Positions 935-21,338 of a DNA stretch of 22,786 nucleotides are shown one piece after another. Both the position numbers and the translations under genes were made by a program. The notes beneath the pieces were generated by a model. The model did not search any database. It saw nothing but the letters and a program-made list of their open reading frames with translations, and was not told the origin of the DNA. The stretch lies in IMG/VR virus record IMGVR_UViG_2547132281_000007, positions 1 to 22,786 of that record. One strand, given 5' to 3'. This stretch comes from a virus. Taxonomy: Duplodnaviria; Heunggongvirae; Uroviricota; Caudoviricetes. How positions within the stretch are numbered: the stretch's first letter is position 1; each line of letters begins with the position of its first letter.

Positions 935-2620
935 GTGAATATAAACGTCGCCGAATTGTTAAATGGGAATTACATTCTGTTATTATTTGTGGTCCTCGCG
1001 CTTGGGCTATGTCTCGGAAAGTTACGACTTGGTTCGATCCAACTGGGTAATTCCATTGGCGTTTTAGTCGTATCGCTGTTATTAGGCCAACAACATTTCA
1101 GCATTAACACCGATGCGCTTAATCTTGGCTTTATGCTGTTTATTTTCTGCGTCGGGGTCGAAGCCGGACCGAACTTTTTTTCCATTTTTTTTCGCGATGG
1201 GAAAAATTACCTAATGTTAGCACTGGTGATGGTTGGCAGTGCGCTGGTGATCGCCTTAGGGTTAGGTAAGCTGTTTGGCTGGGATATTGGCCTGACGGCC
1301 GGTATGTTAGCAGGCTCTATGACGTCGACACCGGTTCTGGTCGGTGCTGGCGATACACTGCGTCATTCCGGCATGGAAAGCAGGCAGCTCTCACTGGCAC
1401 TGGATAATCTGAGCCTCGGGTATGCCTTAACCTATTTAATCGGTCTGGTGAGTTTGATTGTTGGTGCGCGTTACTTGCCGAAATTGCAGCATCAGGACTT
1501 ACAGACCAGCGCCCAGCAAATCGCCCGCGAACGTGGCCTGGACACTGATGCCAACCGTAAGGTTTATTTACCGGTGATCCGCGCCTATCGCGTCGGCCCG
1601 GAACTGGTGGCCTGGACCGACGGCAAAAATCTGCGTGAACTGGGTATTTATCGACAAACCGGCTGCTACATTGAACGTATTCGACGTAACGGGATTCTGG
1701 CAAATCCAGACGGTGATGCCGTGCTACAAATGGGCGATGAAATAGCGTTGGTAGGCTATCCCGACGCCCATGCCCGACTCGATCCCAGCTTCCGTAACGG
1801 TAAAGAAGTTTTCGATCGTGACCTTCTCGACATGCGTATCGTCACTGAAGAAGTGGTCGTTAAAAACCATAACGCTGTAGGTAAACGTCTCGCACAACTG
1901 AAGTTGACCGATCACGGTTGCTTCCTTAACCGCGTCATTCGTAGCCAGATTGAGATGCCGATAGATGACAACGTCGTGCTTAACAAAGGTGACGTTTTAC
2001 AAGTCAGCGGCGATGCCCGCCGCGTAAAAACCATCGCCGATCGCATCGGCTTTATCTCGATTCACAGCCAGGTCACTGACCTGCTGGCATTCTGCGCCTT
2101 CTTTGTTATTGGGCTGATGATCGGGATGATCACCTTCCAGTTCAGCACATTCAGTTTCGGCATGGGGAACGCTGCCGGGTTGTTATTCGCCGGAATTATG
2201 CTGGGCTTTATGCGTGCTAACCACCCGACCTTCGGTTACATTCCGCAAGGTGCATTAAGCATGGTGAAAGAGTTCGGCTTGATGGTGTTTATGGCAGGCG
2301 TTGGTCTGAGCGCCGGTAGCGGTATTAATAACGGCCTGGGCGCGATTGGCGGTCAGATGTTGATTGCCGGATTAATTGTCAGTCTTGTGCCCGTGGTTAT
2401 CTGTTTCTTGTTCGGTGCTTATGTATTGCGAATGAACCGCGCACTGTTGTTCGGCGCAATGATGGGCGCACGCACCTGCGCGCCGGCAATGGAGATCATC
2501 AGTGATACAGCTCGCAGTAACATCCCTGCGCTGGGCTATGCGGGCACCTACGCAATCGCCAACGTCCTGCTGACGCTGGCAGGGACAATCATCGTCATGG
2601 TATGGCCAGGATTAGGATAA
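935..2620 (+). CDS. ybjL: putative AAE-family transporter YbjL (two membrane domains flanking TrkA-C/RCK-C-like domains)
   Basis: 561-aa ORF with a GTG start, beginning [33 protein letters not shown]. Hydrophobic N- and C-terminal halves around a soluble central region; recalled as matching E. coli YbjL in sequence and length. Confidence 0.92.
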
Positions 2621-2732
2621 AACTGAAGTTGCCCTGAAAATGAAATTTTTTTGCACAACCGCAGAACTTTTCCGCAGGGCATCAGTCTTAATTAGTGCCA
2701 CTGCTTTTCTTTGATGTCCCCATTTTGTGGAG

Positions 2733-2778
2733 CCCATCAACCCCGCCATTTCGGTTCAAGGTTGATGGGTTTTTTGTT
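2733..2778 (+). terminator. putative Rho-independent terminator (host side, downstream of ybjL)
   Basis: 10-bp stem cccatcaacc / ggttgatggg (2733-2742 and 2760-2769) followed by TTTTTTGTT. The reverse strand has no U-run, so it is orientated for + strand transcripts. Confidence 0.45.
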
Positions 2779-11533: not shown

Positions 11534-12718
11534 CTATTCCTTATTCAAATCAACCAACTTGTCCATAAGAGTTTCATTGTTATACCCCTCATGCATTTCA
11601 GTTCGTTTCCCTGAAAATTTTCTTTTATGAAACTCATTTATATCAACATTAAGATGTTCACAAATTTGCTCAAACTCATCTAGATAGAGAGGATCAACAT
11701 AATAATTATCTGAAATCAATTTTTTTTTGCGCATTTCTTCGTAAGTTGATTTCAGAGTGTAACGTACTGGGCATAATGCCTTTATTATTTCATGAATAAA
11801 CTCATCATTGTTGACCCCATAATTTCTTAGCTTTAAAAATAGCTTTTTTCGATCATCGGCAATTTTAAAGCAAGCATCCGCAAACTCTAACTTTTCAACA
11901 CCACCAGCAACATAAAAGTCTAATAAAGCCTTCCTTTGAAGGCTAATATCTTCCTCCGGTTTATAATCGTTAACTTTAACACTTCTAATAGATTTCTCTT
12001 TATTTTTTCTACGAGCTGAAATAATATCACTTGGGATGCTAAGAGACATTGCAAGCAATGCCATAAGAATCAAACAAAGAAAAGCATATACAAACACCCT
12101 TATTATTTGATACCACCATTTACTTGTTGTAAAAACCTCACTCCAAAAAGATTCAGTCTGAGAGTCGCCACTCATTTTGAGAATATCAAACCCTTTTACA
12201 CCAGCGACTTTACCAACCAACGATATAACTGGACTCGAATTCTCACTCCCCAAAACAAAAAAGCTCACCCGAAATTTTTCGTCAGGCTCTATGATTACCG
12301 GATTGAAAACCAAAGAATCATTACTAATCCTTGGCTTTATATTGTCCTTTAGATACACACTGTCTGTAATAATTGTAGGTTTCTCTACAACTTCACCTCC
12401 AGAAACTCTTAACGTTAGTAATGATGAATCATCAAAGTCACCTTTCCTTATAACAGCATTACCAGTATTTTTAATTGTTACATTTATTAGCCATAAGTTT
12501 TTTTTGGCTGTTCTGAGTTCTTCCCCATTATATGAAATAGATAATCCTCCGACAGCTTGATGAATATCAAGAACTTTTGTCGGCTGCATTAGTTCAATCG
12601 AAATATTCCCTTGTTTTTCATAATAGAAGCCAACATAAATCGCCACAACAAAACTAACTAAAGCTACTACAGCCATGAATCCAGCAGACTTTACAAATCC
12701 CCATATCGAACTGAGCAT
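11534..12718 (-). CDS. hypothetical 2-TM membrane protein (prophage cargo; candidate superinfection-exclusion or abortive-infection factor)
   Basis: 394-aa ORF in AT-rich DNA. N-terminal TM helix (FMAVVALVSFVVAIYVGFYY), a beta-rich central domain, a second TM (WWYQIIRVFVYAFLCLILMALLAMSL) followed by a positively charged stretch (RRKNKEKSIR), then a helical C-terminal domain. No family recognised. Confidence 0.6.
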   Translation of the reverse strand: MLSSIWGFVKSAGFMAVVALVSFVVAIYVGFYYEKQGNISIELMQPTKVLDIHQAVGGLSISYNGEELRTAKKNLWLINVTIKNTGNAVIRKGDFDDSSLLTLRVSGGEVVEKPTIITDSVYLKDNIKPRISNDSLVFNPVIIEPDEKFRVSFFVLGSENSSPVISLVGKVAGVKGFDILKMSGDSQTESFWSEVFTTSKWWYQIIRVFVYAFLCLILMALLAMSLSIPSDIISARRKNKEKSIRSVKVNDYKPEEDISLQRKALLDFYVAGGVEKLEFADACFKIADDRKKLFLKLRNYGVNNDEFIHEIIKALCPVRYTLKSTYEEMRKKKLISDNYYVDPLYLDEFEQICEHLNVDINEFHKRKFSGKRTEMHEGYNNETLMDKLVDLNKE

Positions 12719-12781
12719 TTTTCGAACTACCCCTTATCTTATCTCATGAGTTGTTTTAGGATATTACACTATTTGCGCGCG

Positions 12782-12800
12782 CTCGTATCCCCGCCACGCC
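12782..12800 (-). other. candidate cos site (cohesive-end sequence of P2/186 type)
   Basis: Minus strand reads GGCGTGGCGGGGATACGAG followed by CGCGCGC. Recalled P2 cos is GGCGAGGCGGGGAAAGCAC and 186 cos GGCGTGGCGGGGAAAGCAT, about 14-15 of 19 matches. The block is GC-rich between two AT-rich genes. Confidence 0.5.
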
Positions 12801-12845
12801 TGCCCGCTTTGTGTAGTGGTTTTCATGCAGGTGCCTGATCCACGC

Positions 12846-12869
12846 AAAAGCCCGCCAGTTCTGGCGGGC
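12846..12869 (-). terminator. putative Rho-independent terminator downstream of the DUF2971-like gene
   Basis: + strand AAAA then gcccgcc-agttct-ggcgggc; on the minus strand this is a GC stem-loop followed by UUUU. Confidence 0.45.
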
Positions 12870-12935
12870 CTTAGCAAAAACGATCCTCAAACGGTCATGC
12901 AAATTCAGGCAGCATAGGCATGCACTGTTGTTAGG

Positions 12936-14054
12936 TTAGTTCGTAATGCCAATTTCCTTCAAAACTTTAGCCATTTCCGTCTGACTTAACTTGTTCCTGA
13001 ACAAAGTGAAATTTTTCATTTTTTCCGCTCGTTGCCCTTTTGAAATAGTAATCTTTCCTGATGCTGATAACTCAGAGTCAAAAAAATAACATATTGTTGA
13101 ATTTGAATTCTCCATATTTGACTTGATACAATTCCATATGCTTTCTTTTTTCATTTCACACATTCTAGGACCAAAAATGATCCCTTTAACAACATTAGCA
13201 TCATGATGAAAAATATGTCCAATATTTCGATTTACGCGTCTTTGAACATGCCGCTCACTCCCTATTCCTGCATTTGCCTCCGGAATAAACATTCGATATT
13301 CAGCTTCATATCTCCAAAATCTATTTTTAGTTAAAAATAACTCTGCAACATTTGCGCTTGGGTCTAGAAGTGAAACCTCTTTAGCCTGATTACTATATTT
13401 TATTGGCTTAACTGGAAAATTAAATTTATCTGATGAAAATAAATTTTCTCTTAGCTTCATTCCAGTATAGGGTATACCATCAATATTAAAATCCTGCGTT
13501 TCATAAATCACAACACAACCACTAAAGCCAGCAGCATAATGCGCCCACATCATACGATCTAACGCATTAGCTGAAAATGACACACTGAATACTGCAGGAA
13601 CTATTTTCCTATACAACCTTTCTTTGATACTGTTCTCGCAAAGTGAAACCAAATATTGGCGTGGTTCAGGAATATTTCCATAAATAGCAGAATTAATCAC
13701 ATTGATAGGAAGTAAACCATCATCTATGATCTTACGTATCTCATCAACGTGTGAGTCAAACAGGCTATCTAATGACTCAATGCTACTTTTTATTTTTTTT
13801 CCTCTAAAAATACGATTCAATCCCTTATGTATTTTCAAATTACTCAAATCCAATATGTGACTCAAATTTTTATAGGATTTATCGCAAGGAGAACGCAATA
13901 AAATATCCCATAATTTCAATTTATTATCGAAGCGATAATCTATATTGAGATCATTGGGATCATTCAATTGCGCAGGAGCGGAAAAATATAATTCATTATA
14001 ACGAATAGCTTTCTCGAAGAAGAAGTCCGGACGGTAATACTTGAAAAGATACAT
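12936..14054 (-). CDS. DUF2971-like hypothetical protein (prophage cargo at the P2 old/tin position; candidate anti-phage effector)
   Basis: 372-aa ORF in AT-rich DNA with an AGGT RBS. N-terminus MYLFKYYRPD...FSAPAQLNDPND and internal MMWAHYAAGFSGCVVIYE resemble my recollection of the DUF2971 signature (LYKY..., FNDPxE, MWshYa). Positioned between the replication/tum module and cos. Confidence 0.65.
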   Translation of the reverse strand: MYLFKYYRPDFFFEKAIRYNELYFSAPAQLNDPNDLNIDYRFDNKLKLWDILLRSPCDKSYKNLSHILDLSNLKIHKGLNRIFRGKKIKSSIESLDSLFDSHVDEIRKIIDDGLLPINVINSAIYGNIPEPRQYLVSLCENSIKERLYRKIVPAVFSVSFSANALDRMMWAHYAAGFSGCVVIYETQDFNIDGIPYTGMKLRENLFSSDKFNFPVKPIKYSNQAKEVSLLDPSANVAELFLTKNRFWRYEAEYRMFIPEANAGIGSERHVQRRVNRNIGHIFHHDANVVKGIIFGPRMCEMKKESIWNCIKSNMENSNSTICYFFDSELSASGKITISKGQRAEKMKNFTLFRNKLSQTEMAKVLKEIGITN

Positions 14055-14438
14055 GACATTACCTATAACATTGCAATATTAATAACCGTATGAAAACAGT
14101 TTGATTGTATTGATAATATCCTATTCTGCATATACCACAGTGTAAAGATTAATTTTAAATACCATATCCAACAGTAAATCATGTATCGACCGCCAGATAA
14201 GAAGCTTTTGAAAAACTTGGACGATAATTAATCAAAAGCTCTTCCCATCCTGTATCCTCTATCTCACTCTTTTGGACATTGAAAGAAGCCCCTCTGATCG
14301 GGAATGATTGTTTCCAGCGTTTGACCACGATATACAATATGATATTTGATGTCTTTTGATCAGATGGCTAACGCCTCGCATAGCTCGTTGTTCAACCTTG
14401 CTGACGCCAGAAGCAAGTTCAGACGCCAGCAACGTTTC

Positions 14439-14672
14439 TTAATGCAGCCAGCTGTCGTCTTCCCACACCTTCTGCATAATTTTCATCACTTGTTTCCTTT
14501 CTTCGTCCAGTTGCAGTCCGGTCAGTTCCACACCGTTAGAGCTACCTTTACGGATACGAATTACCGTTTTGGGATACAGGGGGCGCAGATTGCGGTAAAG
14601 CTCTGATTCAAGGGCGTCTAGGGTAGACTGGCTAATCTTCTGCTCTTTATCGATCATTATTTCAATGCGCAT
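14439..14672 (-). CDS. DinI-family protein
   Basis: 77 aa from the ATG at 14672, with a GAGGGG RBS 6 nt upstream. MRIEIMIDK...LDALESEL...VWEDDSWLH aligns in recall with E. coli DinI (MRIEVTIAK...AIDALAGEL...ETWESADDWF). The annotated ORF extension to 14744 has no support. Confidence 0.75.
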   Translation of the reverse strand: MRIEIMIDKEQKISQSTLDALESELYRNLRPLYPKTVIRIRKGSSNGVELTGLQLDEERKQVMKIMQKVWEDDSWLH

Positions 14673-14682
14673 AAAAGTCCCC

Positions 14683-14871
14683 TCAGCTGATGACATCCAT
14701 TGAGCGGTTGTATTCGTGGCTTCTGATTTTTGCCATGAGTTCATCTGTCAGTTCAGAAACCCACTGCAGGGCCAGCCCCTTCTCTTCATCACTACACTCA
14801 CTAGCCGCTACAAGCTTAAGAAAAAAATCAATGCGTTGGAGCTTCAAAGACTCCAAAAAATAGTCCTGCAT
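14683..14871 (-). CDS. small hypothetical protein in the SOS-controlled tum-like operon (possible antirepressor N-terminal module)
   Basis: 62 aa from the ATG at 14871, preceded by a perfect AGGAGG RBS with 4-nt spacing and lying directly downstream of the LexA box. The ORF extension to 14973 lacks an RBS. The gene sits where phage 186 carries tum. Confidence 0.5.
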   Translation of the reverse strand: MQDYFLESLKLQRIDFFLKLVAASECSDEEKGLALQWVSELTDELMAKIRSHEYNRSMDVIS

Positions 14872-14912
14872 CTTTCCTCCTATGACACCACAAGCAATAC
14901 TGTATACATAAC

Positions 14913-14932
14913 CACTGTTTATATTTACAGTA
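14913..14932 (-). promoter_or_regulatory. LexA box (SOS operator) upstream of the tum/DinI-like operon
   Basis: Minus strand TACTGTAAATATAAACAGTG is CTG-N10-CAG, matching consensus TACTGTATATATATACAGTA at 17 of 20 positions. It lies about 40 bp upstream of the AGGAGG RBS and is flanked by promoter-like hexamers (TTTACA ... TATACT). Confidence 0.6.
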
Positions 14933-15024
14933 TATAATAATCTTACTGATGTAAAACGTTTTTTTACGTTCATCAGCCTGATATGCCTGGTATTATTAAG
15001 AGCACGAATTGTTAATCCGCGTAA

Positions 15025-17439
15025 TTAATACAGGTTCCGCCACTTATCATCTTCCTGCAAACGCTGGTTCCGATAGAAAATACGCAGGCCTGCTCCTGAC
15101 GGAATGCTGCCGCCGCGAAGGAGTAAATCGACCTCTTTCTCGCTGCCATCAAATCTTCTGGACTTCAGTTCATAGACGAGCTGCTGTCGTTGATGGTCTG
15201 TAATTCGCTGTTTGTAGTCTCTACGCCGTTTCGGTTTCACCAGGCGTAACCTTGCAGCCAGTTCCCGGCGTTCTTTTTTGTTCATACTGTGCAGGTAATC
15301 GTGCAACTCCTTGTCATCCATACGGGTGATATCCGTTCTGGTATCCCCATCAGCTGATTTGTCTTTCCCTTGTTGGTACAAATTTTCAGCAAGGGGACAG
15401 TTATTGCCACGAGTCCAAGGGGCGCAAGCGCCCTGGTCGGCTGCCGCCTCCTGAACGTCAACGGCCTTACGAACCATTTTCCACTTCACTGCATGAGTGC
15501 AGATCTTGCCCTCTGCAATGGGTGACCAGATGCCATAAATACGAATACCGTGATCGCCATAGGCGGTCGGCTCTTCGTTAATTTCATAAGCAGTTCTGAT
15601 GAGGTGATATTTACGGGGAACCAGTACACCTCCCTGCTTCATGATATAGGTGGCAAAACAACCAGCATCAGCAGCAGCCAGAATGGCATCAAGGCGCGGG
15701 TTATCCAGTACCGGCACACCTGCTTTTTTGTCACCCTGCTGCCTTGCCGCCTGACCAGCCAGCAATCGCAGTTCACGGTAAGCCTGACGCCCCGGAATAC
15801 CAAAGAAGCGGAATTGCTGAACACGATGCAAAGACGCCCAGGCATTCACGTATTCAGCGTTATCACGAAGAGATTTACCCGTTTCCTTGCTGATCTCGCC
15901 AGCCAGACCACGCCCGTCAATGTTCTTACTGATGTATTTCGCTATGTAGCTTGTCGGCGTTCCTTTGCGCGGGTTAATCAGCTCAGACTTAAAGCGCGGC
16001 CCCGTGTTATTGCCCAGCTCCTCGCGGTCTTCACGGATAGCAAACTTACGCAACAATGCAGTAATGGCGCGGCGGTCTTTTTTGCGCATGAAACACAACA
16101 GGTGCCAGTGAACTGTGCCGTCGTGATGCGGCTCAGCCACCCGCACGCCATACCAGCGCAACCCGGCTTTGTGCATCGCCTTACGAAATGCAGCAAACAT
16201 ACCGACCAGATAATCGCTGCTTTGTCTTACCGTCGCGTTTTTCCAGGTCGGGTTGGGTCTGCCGTTATTTAGCGTGGAATGGAAACGTGACGGACAGGTA
16301 ATGGTGTAGAAAACGGCGCAGTCACCGCGCATTTCCGCGATAAGCTCCAGACCTTTAACACAGGCCATCATCTCATTGCGGCGATGCGCCGGGTTGCTGC
16401 AGCTGGCGTTTACCACATCTTCCATATCCAGCGCGTCTCCGTCTTCGTTCACCAGTTCATGAGAACGGAAAAACTCCAGCGACTTACGGCGCTGCTCACG
16501 TTTATGCATCACAGCTTCATAGCTGACATAGGGAGATGCTTTTTTGCTGACCAGGCAGACAGCACGCAACTGCTCTTCCCGCCATTCGCAACGCATCTTC
16601 CACAATTTCCGATACCACCAGTCGGCGCACAGCATACGCGCCAGCGAGCCCGGAATGAGTTCATAGGGCACTGGTTTACGGCGGTTTCTTTTCCGACGGA
16701 GTTGCTCAAACGCAGGCGGGATGACATCCAAACGTAGGGTTTCCGCTGCCACCCTTTCCCATGTCTTGCGGATTTCTTCTGGCTTAACATCATCGGTGGC
16801 GTACAAATCACCACAAGCGGCATCAAGACACATGCTCATATGCGCAGCGACAAGGGTAGACAGGCGTTTCACCTGATCCTGACTCATTTCAGGCAGGATC
16901 AGCAGGCCGTCCAGCCCTTCATGGCTTGCCATAAAGCGAAAAGAAGTGGATAGCTGACTGTCGCGTACATGCTCCAGTCGTTCCAGACATGGCTTAATCG
17001 TCTCACGCAGATAGCGAGAATAAGCCTTTGGCCTGCCCAGGCTGCTGAAATATTCGATACGTTGCATCAGCGGCTTGCTGATGTGGGAAGGCTGGGCGCT
17101 GACGTCCGCCAGAATGACCATGTCCGGGTTAAAACGCTGCTGTTCATGCGCCAGCTTTGCCCGACTAATGAGCTTATCCTGCTCCATTTCACGCTGGACA
17201 GGATCACGGGATTCATTAAAGAAATAACGCTCCCAGACCTGCTCACTCAGTGCATCGCGGCGCAGCTGTTCCTGCTCATTATCGGCAGCGTACAGAGTGA
17301 TCAGGTTTGAAAGTGCAGACTCCAGCGCAACTTCCGCCGGGTCCAGATACGGGTTAATGGCCTTTTTCGGGCCGTTCCATGAAAATGCTACAGCGGCCTC
17401 GTTAAAGCCGCTAGAGTTGCTCATATCGTCATGACTCAT
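15025..17439 (-). CDS. replication initiation endonuclease (P2 gpA-like, rolling-circle)
   Basis: 804-aa ORF of the size and family expected for P2 gpA (recalled as about 760 aa), directly downstream of dam with an ATGA overlap. Confidence 0.88.
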
Positions 17440-20726: not shown

Positions 20727-20768
20727 GCACAATGAAATCGTCAAGATAAAAGTTCACTTGGAGTGACC

Positions 20769-21338
20769 ATGAATTTGGAGAAAGGCGGACGAGGCGCTAT
20801 AGAGCGCATGGTAGAAGCTTATGGATTCAAAACTCGACAGGCGTTGTGCGATCATTTAGGAATCTCTAAAAGTACACTCGCCACACGCTACATGCGTGAC
20901 TCATTCCCAGCAGAATGGGTAATCCAGTGCGCCCTTGAAACGGGCACCTCGCTTAATTGGCTCACAACCGGACATGGTTCAAAGCAAACTTCAGGTAATA
21001 CAAATACTATGGAAGTTGCTAAATATGTATTATCTGATGGTGCCTTGCGTGAAGACGGTTTTTATATTTTTGATAAGGGATTTCTACCCTCTACGTTTAA
21101 AAAACCTTTTGTCATCACAGATAACAATTCTGAATTTATTTGTGATAAAGAATTTGATGATATACGTGATGGTAAATGGGTAATAAGTATTGATGGCGAA
21201 GTAACGATCCGTGACATTACTCGTTTACCCGGTGGAAGAATCTTCGTCGAGGGTGGAAACAGAGCCTTCGAATGTAAGATAGAAGACATTGAAATAATTG
21301 GTAAAATTATAAGTTTAACAGTCAAGTATGTTAAATAG
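20769..21338 (+). CDS. cI: CI immunity repressor (phage 186 type)
   Basis: About 190 aa; ...VEAYGFKTRQALCDHLGISKSTLATRYMRD...CALETGTSLNWLTTGHG... has an N-terminal HTH and a 186 CI-like C-terminal domain (186 CI recalled as 192 aa). ATG at 20769 has a GGAG RBS; an in-frame GTG at 20763 is the alternative start. Confidence 0.85.
   Translation: MNLEKGGRGAIERMVEAYGFKTRQALCDHLGISKSTLATRYMRDSFPAEWVIQCALETGTSLNWLTTGHGSKQTSGNTNTMEVAKYVLSDGALREDGFYIFDKGFLPSTFKKPFVITDNNSEFICDKEFDDIRDGKWVISIDGEVTIRDITRLPGGRIFVEGGNRAFECKIEDIEIIGKIISLTVKYVK

Follow-up and report, generated by a model that had tools for sequence, protein, structure and literature searches.

A probable two-gene form, of Fels-2 type, of the SOS (tum) operon of phage 186 in a P2/186-like prophage remnant of Escherichia coli

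Tum, a protein made by phage 186, binds the CI repressor and prevents it from binding to its operators (Shearwin et al. 1998, cited in PMC3121763), and it has the look of a fusion between an antirepressor and DinI (Lemire et al. 2011, PMC3121763). In the Salmonella phage Fels-2 and in PSP3, tum is split in two (PMC3121763, citing Bunny, Liu & Roth 2002), the antirepressor activity being assigned in PSP3 to the upstream gene (PMC3121763); the split arrangement is thus already known from the literature on these two phages. Here we describe a module of this kind at positions 14,439 to 14,932 of the virus record IMGVR_UViG_2547132281_000007, of which the whole stretch analysed, positions 1 to 22,786 (22,786 nucleotides, nt), is called the window. 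The window is a segment of the E. coli chromosome that starts with ybjL and rybB and continues into a P2/186-like prophage. The module is very probably a Fels-2-type two-gene version of the 186 SOS (tum) operon within a remnant of that prophage; it is real and, as the comparisons below suggest, probably functional.

The module lies directly downstream of gene A and on the same strand, and all of its elements are on the minus strand. In the order in which they would be transcribed, gene A and the elements of the module are the following, with lengths of open reading frames (ORFs) in amino acids (aa).

15025-17439, minus strand: gene A, P2/186-type replication endonuclease, 804 aa (Phage_GPA, E = 5e-127)
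14950-14955, minus strand: -35 hexamer TTTACA of a p95-like promoter, read from the sequence
14927-14932, minus strand: -10 hexamer TACTGT, 17 nt from the -35 and also the left half of the LexA box
14913-14932, minus strand: predicted LexA box 1, TACTGTAAATATAAACAGTG, agreeing with the consensus TACTGTATATATATACAGTA at 17 of 20 positions
14898-14917, minus strand: candidate second, overlapping LexA-like site, CAGTGGTTATGTATACAGTA, offset by 15 bp from box 1
14876-14881, minus strand: Shine-Dalgarno sequence AGGAGG of the 62-aa ORF, 4 nt before the ATG and invariant in the alignment of related phages
14683-14871, minus strand: tumA-like gene, 62 aa, ATG at 14871 and stop codon TGA at 14685-14683
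14679-14684, minus strand: ribosome-binding site (RBS) GAGGGG, which serves the DinI-like gene and overlaps the stop codon of tumA
14439-14672, minus strand: tumB (dinI-like) gene, 77 aa, ATG at 14672, in a different frame from tumA

An earlier reading made from the letters alone (the sequence-only reading) had recognised a near-consensus LexA box overlapping a promoter, a 62-aa ORF with a perfect AGGAGG and, 10 nt after its stop, a DinI-family ORF with its own RBS, all at the place that tum occupies in 186. Each of these elements is where that reading had put it.

In Fels-2 the module stands at the same place after gene A, with a nearly identical promoter, LexA box and RBS and with the same out-of-frame spacer of 10 nt. 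The STM2728 protein is 96.8% identical to the 62-aa protein of the window and STM2726.1 is 100% identical to the DinI-like protein. The window differs from Fels-2 in its host, E. coli, in the deletion that has made the prophage a remnant, in a CI repressor that is only 38% identical and in the gene downstream, which encodes a DUF2971/PDC-S31 protein in place of STM2726. In 186 a LexA-repressed promoter, p95, also follows gene A, and its TTCACA and TACTGT hexamers are separated by 18 nt with the -10 inside the LexA box, like that of the window. The two protein modules, however, are fused in 186 Tum into 146 aa, the N-terminal module homologous to TumA by profile and the C-terminal DinI module 41% identical to the 77-aa ORF, whereas in the window they are encoded by two genes in different frames. 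The record of 186 tum also gives shorter products from internal codons; one of these codons is a GTG that follows AAGGAGGG and gives only the DinI-like part. No homologue of 186 orf97 was found downstream of the module in the window or in the Fels-2 region. PSP3 carries tumA and tumB as two genes behind a LexA box after gene A, as in the window; its record describes tumA (60 aa) as 'similar to 5' end 186 tum; UV induction of prophage' and tumB as DinI, and its TumB is 78% identical to the DinI-like ORF of the window. Unlike the window pair, which is out of frame, the PSP3 genes are in frame and separated by TAG-ATT. The same gene order after A is seen in 186, Fels-2, PSP3 and nine other phages.

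The 77-aa ORF matches the Pfam DinI family (PF06183) over profile positions 1-63 of 63 with E = 6.6e-23 and 81.3 bits against a cutoff of 24.2, and it matches the structure of E. coli DinI (PDB 1GHH) with E = 2.7e-6. Chromosomal DinI belongs to the same fold family and is LexA-regulated, and the C-terminal WEDDSW motif corresponds to the acidic helix region. The identity of 41% to 186 Tum extends without gaps over Tum residues 71-145 (E = 3e-24), which bears out the statement in the sequence-only reading that the C-terminal half of Tum is DinI-like. Against NF007893, the NCBIfam equivalog for chromosomal DinI, the ORF scores 42.7 bits, below the cutoff of 111 set for orthologues, and on these scores it is a phage paralogue and not the orthologue of chromosomal DinI. 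In relatives the equivalent of its GAGGGG is GGGG or GGTG.

The 62-aa protein is acidic, with 12 Asp and Glu against 7 Lys and Arg, and its AlphaFold2 model is a two-helix hairpin (residues 2-23 and 28-61; predicted local distance difference test score, pLDDT, 86.9) with a conserved Cys in the turn. An exhaustive HMMER search of 1.84 billion cluster representatives gave 67 hits, the representatives of what is called here the ORF62 family, among which the genuine members are small proteins with identity down to about 36%; a few entries are longer, and these have N-terminal extensions or are chimeric or spurious. Diverged members of the family bridge to Tum, as in MQDLFLEKMALERIELIARLATINQCSIGDKELVINWIAEL, which can be aligned beside DRELNEHVMIERVEMIARLTAEGTCQERDREIALNLIAEI of Tum. 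With hhalign, a 35-sequence ORF62 profile matches the 186 Tum-N family with a probability of 96.8% and P = 2.9e-10, columns 4-44 falling on columns 4-44, and a hidden Markov model built from Fels-2-type sequences alone gives 186 Tum 35.5 bits, as compared with 12.5 for the best of 2000 shuffled decoys. Residues E7, R13, C26, A34 and E40 are nearly invariant in both families, and over Tum 1-57 the identity of the 62-aa ORF is about 20%. By these comparisons the 62-aa ORF is a diverged homologue of the N-terminal (antirepressor) half of Tum, and it would presumably act as an antirepressor of 186-type CI; it is called TumA here.

The gene is labelled 'hypothetical' in databases. No Pfam, NCBIfam or PADLOC annotation was obtained for the 62-aa ORF, and its PHROG, phrog_698, is one of unknown function. 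A PDB sequence search gave no match, and a Foldseek search with the AlphaFold2 model was uninformative, returning only generic helical hairpins with E > 1. The Pfam family PPP1R21_C was dismissed as noise (13 bits against a threshold of 27.3), and the name 'levan regulatory protein' carried by some homologue records has no support here. Several public gene calls lengthen the ORF to 84-109 aa (14683-14973, minus strand) by starting it further upstream, at ATGs within the promoter and LexA box. The 96-aa reading from the ATG at 14973 passes through the promoter and was rejected, the N-terminal extensions not being conserved while the sequence from MQDY onward is, and the extended calls are annotation artefacts.

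LexA box 1 retains both CTGT/ACAG cores. It is the only CTGT-N8-ACAG in the window and the sole site there with three or fewer mismatches to the consensus, and no such site arose in any of 100 dinucleotide-preserving shuffles. Each of the 13 phages compared, the distant ESSI-2, YenM_324, 186 and PSP3 among them, has a LexA box with CTGT-N8-ACAG intact at a distance of 40-100 nt upstream of its tumA-like start. The -35 and -10 hexamers are invariant in six aligned phages, ST13phi12.1 and ST512phi13.6 being diverged members of this set. The promoter alignment, which took in two diverged Fels-2-type promoters, has a footprint-like pattern in which the N8 spacer varies and no variation is seen in the -35, the -10 with the left half-site, the right half-site or the RBS. 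It is on these comparative grounds, the layout of 186 p95 and the conservation in the aligned phages, that the promoter is accepted. The candidate second LexA-like site has a good right half (ACAGTA, 14903-14898) and a poor left half (GTGG); its CAGTGG and TACAGT are invariant across the diverged Fels-2-type promoters while the 8 nt in between vary. A third half-site at this position is absent from 186 and PSP3.

The stop of gene A (15025) and the tumA-like start are separated by a 153-nt AT-rich spacer (33% GC) that holds two hairpins, one of which is placed as follows.

14945-14977, minus strand: hairpin between the gene A stop and the promoter, CUGAUGAACGU-A6-ACGUUUUACAUCAG, its 3' arm containing the -35

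The fold of 14935-15030 (minus strand) has a z score of -3.76, and an equally good fold was found in 0 of 200 shuffles. The hairpin is terminator-like and may insulate the SOS promoter from read-through out of gene A; analogous palindromes lie upstream of the LexA box in the Gifsy SOS loci (PMC3121763). At the other end of the module there is a further hairpin.

14398-14432, minus strand: GC-rich hairpin just after the dinI-like stop, -30.8 kcal/mol, z = -2.18, without a U-run

This could possibly stop transcription in part or stabilise the mRNA, as t95a does in 186. The terminator scan called none in the module, and Rfam and tRNA scans gave no match inside it.

The DinI gene is not a constant partner. 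It is absent next to the LexA-boxed tumA-like gene in ESSI-2, ESSI2_ev129 and YenM_324, where the tumA-like product has a tail of the form ...GGxGxxFQ. The DinI-less homologues are located at 825-1037 of L012, about 829-1050 of L013 and about 5694-5906 of L014. Diverged TumA homologues of DinI-less phages end in a Gly-rich tail whose terminal motif is conserved, seen as ...GGxSGGGSRFQ, ...RRGFQ, ...GCGTLQ or ...GGVLQ, and further proteins with such a tail are P0267, P0269, P0273, P0276, P0298 and P0301. The Fels-2-type protein lacks this tail, which is possibly a degron or interaction motif. The 186-type Tum N-domain also occurs as a stand-alone protein of 63 aa, named 'Tum protein', downstream of gene A (2501-2692 of L016/L017), and the next gene after it encodes a DNA methylase, not DinI. 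Going by these loci, the fused 146-aa Tum of 186 is only one of at least three architectures, in which DinI is optional and TumA is the constant component.

By analogy with 186, Fels-2 and PSP3, from which the binding of LexA, the induction by SOS and the contacts of TumA with CI and of DinI with RecA are transferred, the module would work as follows. In the resting lysogen LexA would keep the operon off by sitting on the box, from which a sigma-70 promoter downstream of A takes its -10 and start region. On DNA damage, activated RecA would lead to self-cleavage of LexA and a bicistronic mRNA would be made. TumA, the acidic helical hairpin of 62 aa, would then bind the 186-type CI, probably at its N-terminal DNA-binding domain, and reversibly block operator binding. 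With CI blocked the early lytic promoter would fire, giving expression of apl/cox, cII, fil, dam and A. The switch genes of the window are of 186 type (CI, Cox/Apl and CII), and homology suggests that they would be derepressed in this way by SOS. The DinI paralogue, a counterpart of Tum's C-terminal half and of the short Tum forms from the internal start in 186, would bind RecA filaments and tune the SOS signal, as an accessory that derepression could dispense with. With the head and lysis genes lost, induction would proceed without virions; excision, replication or induction in trans of co-resident relatives could remain.

The putative target of TumA is encoded near the far end of the window.

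20763-21338, plus strand: 186-type CI repressor, 32% identical to 186 CI (E = 1e-24), PHROG annotation transcriptional repressor

The best match to this CI among 50,697 phage records is only 56% identical, and an E. coli strain with a 100% identical tum module carries a different CI allele. In seven genomes (the window, E. coli LD22-1, 813R9, Cartapus, Fels-2, Kp4847-2 and Kp4872-2) TumA is 97-100% identical and A and CII are 88-100% identical, while CI is only 38-55% identical to that of the window. The divergence is unevenly spread over CI: in phages with the same TumA the N-terminal helix-turn-helix domain is 66-78% identical and the C-terminal domain, taken with the linker, 26-43%, and the N-terminal domain falls to 40% in 186 and YenM_324, which have the 186-type Tum-N. 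Over 78 pairs, TumA identity correlates with identity of the CI N-terminal domain (Spearman 0.87, Mantel p = 2e-4), as against 0.30 (p = 0.04) for the C-terminal domain, a correlation that is confounded by shared ancestry and does not amount to proof. The pattern suggests that TumA contacts the DNA-binding domain of CI and serves many CI alleles. It is a tentative proposal, then, that the Fels-2-type TumA may be a broad-specificity antirepressor recognising the conserved N-terminal domain of diverged 186-type CIs. Paired with this, and put forward just as cautiously for the two together, the conserved third half-site would add a second LexA layer that sets the threshold for induction.

If TumA is of broad specificity, the SOS-controlled protein of a defective remnant could induce in trans co-resident P2/186-like prophages with other CI alleles, a crosstalk of the Gifsy kind in Peduoviridae, which occur in about a fifth of E. 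coli genomes. The dinI-gfoA/gftA loci of Gifsy-1/2/3 are SOS-controlled operons that pair a DinI homologue with a small antirepressor of the non-cleaving type, and these antirepressors are able to act in trans on other prophages (PMC3121763). They differ from the module of the window in that dinI comes first, the antirepressors belong to a family that is unrelated and the phages, which are lambdoid, have other repressors.

The sequence-only reading had allowed either for a tum split by a frameshift or stop or for a natural two-gene version. A recent break by nonsense or frameshift mutation of a fused 186-type gene would have left one or both ORFs non-functional, and such an event might be looked for in a prophage that is a deletion remnant, the fused form being present in 186. 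The tumA stop and the dinI-like ATG, however, are exactly 10 nt apart (GGGGACTTTT, containing GAGGGG), the spacer is 10, 11 or 13 nt long among relatives, and both genes come with an RBS of their own. Ratios of non-synonymous to synonymous differences (pN/pS) are 0.11-0.14 for tumA and 0.11-0.14 for the DinI gene at a pS of about 0.57 relative to relatives, which points to purifying selection on both; a pN/pS of 0.97 for the DinI gene of ST13phi12.1 stemmed from a misregistered start codon and was discarded. The same two-ORF layout, with 97-100% protein identity, is found in the intact Fels-2, Cartapus, 813R9 and Klebsiella phages, and, of 5426 complete E. coli genomes, 1141 carry the module, annotated 'hypothetical protein' and 'DinI-like family protein'; it also occurs in 56-66 sequenced phages whose hosts are Klebsiella, Escherichia, Salmonella and Yersinia. 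The two modules are not joined into one polypeptide of about 146 aa in the window, being two ORFs in different frames, and among the 67 ORF62-family representatives (from 1.84 billion) none carries a C-terminal fusion to the TumA domain. Since the frames differ, the spacer varies, both genes are under purifying selection and the module occurs widely, the arrangement is best read as a natural two-gene operon, of the split (tumA/tumB) subtype and not Tum sensu stricto. The natural version stands; a recent break has a next to negligible chance of being right and is refuted for practical purposes.

Several results weigh against taking the natural pair as a working SOS-controlled tum operon. BLASTP gave no alignment between the 62-aa ORF and 186 Tum, and a profile made only of homologues more than 80% identical reached an hhalign probability of just 33.6% against Tum-N, so the homology rests on intermediate sequences; the suggested correspondence of the 62-aa ORF to the Tum N-terminus thus fails in pairwise comparison and holds with profiles of diverse homologues. 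PSP3 TumA scores marginally, at 15.5 bits with the 186-type profile and 11.6 with the combined profile against 9.5-10.9 for the best shuffles, and is not detected by the Fels-2-type profile, so that functional transfer rests mainly on 186 Tum and Fels-2. The window CI is at 38% and 32% identity to the CIs of Fels-2 and 186, and the action of TumA on it is assumed. The -10, TACTGT, is weak, and the promoter was not listed by the generic consensus promoter scan because this hexamer matches TATAAT at only 3 of 6 positions. The 62-aa protein might be SOS-induced with some other role, as a regulator or host-directed factor, in a module that mainly delivers a DinI-like modulator of RecA. Near-invariance of TumA beside a CI that varies to 38-55% is unusual for a specific repressor-antirepressor pair, and neither the database annotation nor the generic hairpin, with no informative structural neighbour, speaks for a particular function. 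This other role is nonetheless unlikely in view of the profile homology to the Tum N-terminal half, the tum-like position, promoter and LexA control, the constant company of 186-type CI/Apl/CII switches, the way in which TumA divergence tracks the CI N-terminal domain, the existence of modules with TumA and without DinI, which make TumA and not DinI the constant component, and the Fels-2 and PSP3 literature (PMC3121763). The LexA box and promoter might instead be relics that no longer respond to SOS in the remnant, leaving the operon constitutively silent or on, as the weak -10, the missing promoter call and the defective state of the prophage would allow. The segment of promoter, LexA box and RBS, however, is essentially the one that Fels-2 and other intact phages carry, neither the LexA half-sites nor the hexamers are damaged, and 186 p95 uses the same TACTGT as its -10, which makes a relic very improbable.

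Taken as a Fels-2-type tum operon, the locus matters mainly for annotation. Its 62-aa gene is a 'hypothetical protein' in RefSeq without a Pfam or NCBIfam model, and it probably couples a very common prophage family of E. coli, Salmonella and Klebsiella to the SOS response. Recognition of TumA as the Tum antirepressor module would allow P2-like prophages and remnants that are inducible by DNA damage to be predicted, and its near-invariance against a variable CI offers a testable lead on target recognition and on cross-induction of co-resident prophages.

The prophage end is adjoined by two host genes.

935-2620, plus strand: ybjL, host gene
2700-2778, plus strand: rybB small RNA gene (Rfam RF00110, 105 bits)

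In relatives the other flank is rcdA (ybjK), which places the insertion between rybB and rcdA, and a version of the prophage of about 38 kb is present in related strains. Compared with the intact prophage of E. coli LD22-1, about 7.4 kb are deleted at the junction 9540/9541, where the terminase ATPase gene has been joined at its middle to the baseplate gene V. The genes lost with the deletion are those for the scaffold, capsid, small terminase, head completion, holin, lysozyme, spanin and tail completion. With head and lysis genes deleted the prophage would be unable to make particles; the term remnant used in the sequence-only reading is therefore apt, while the 186-type CI, Apl/Cox and CII are kept.

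Between the tum module and the portal gene there is a cargo region of low GC content (35%).

11534-14054, minus strand: cargo region
12936-14054, minus strand: highlighted part of the cargo region

The region encodes a DUF2971 protein of 372 aa, for which PADLOC gives a match to the candidate defence family PDC-S31 (E = 1e-23); a 394-aa ORF of unknown function (phrog_29747) also lies there. The cargo differs in relatives at the same spot, with STM2726 in Fels-2 and Hypoth_Ymh in 813R9, and this place in the genome looks like a hotspot for variable cargo or defence genes.

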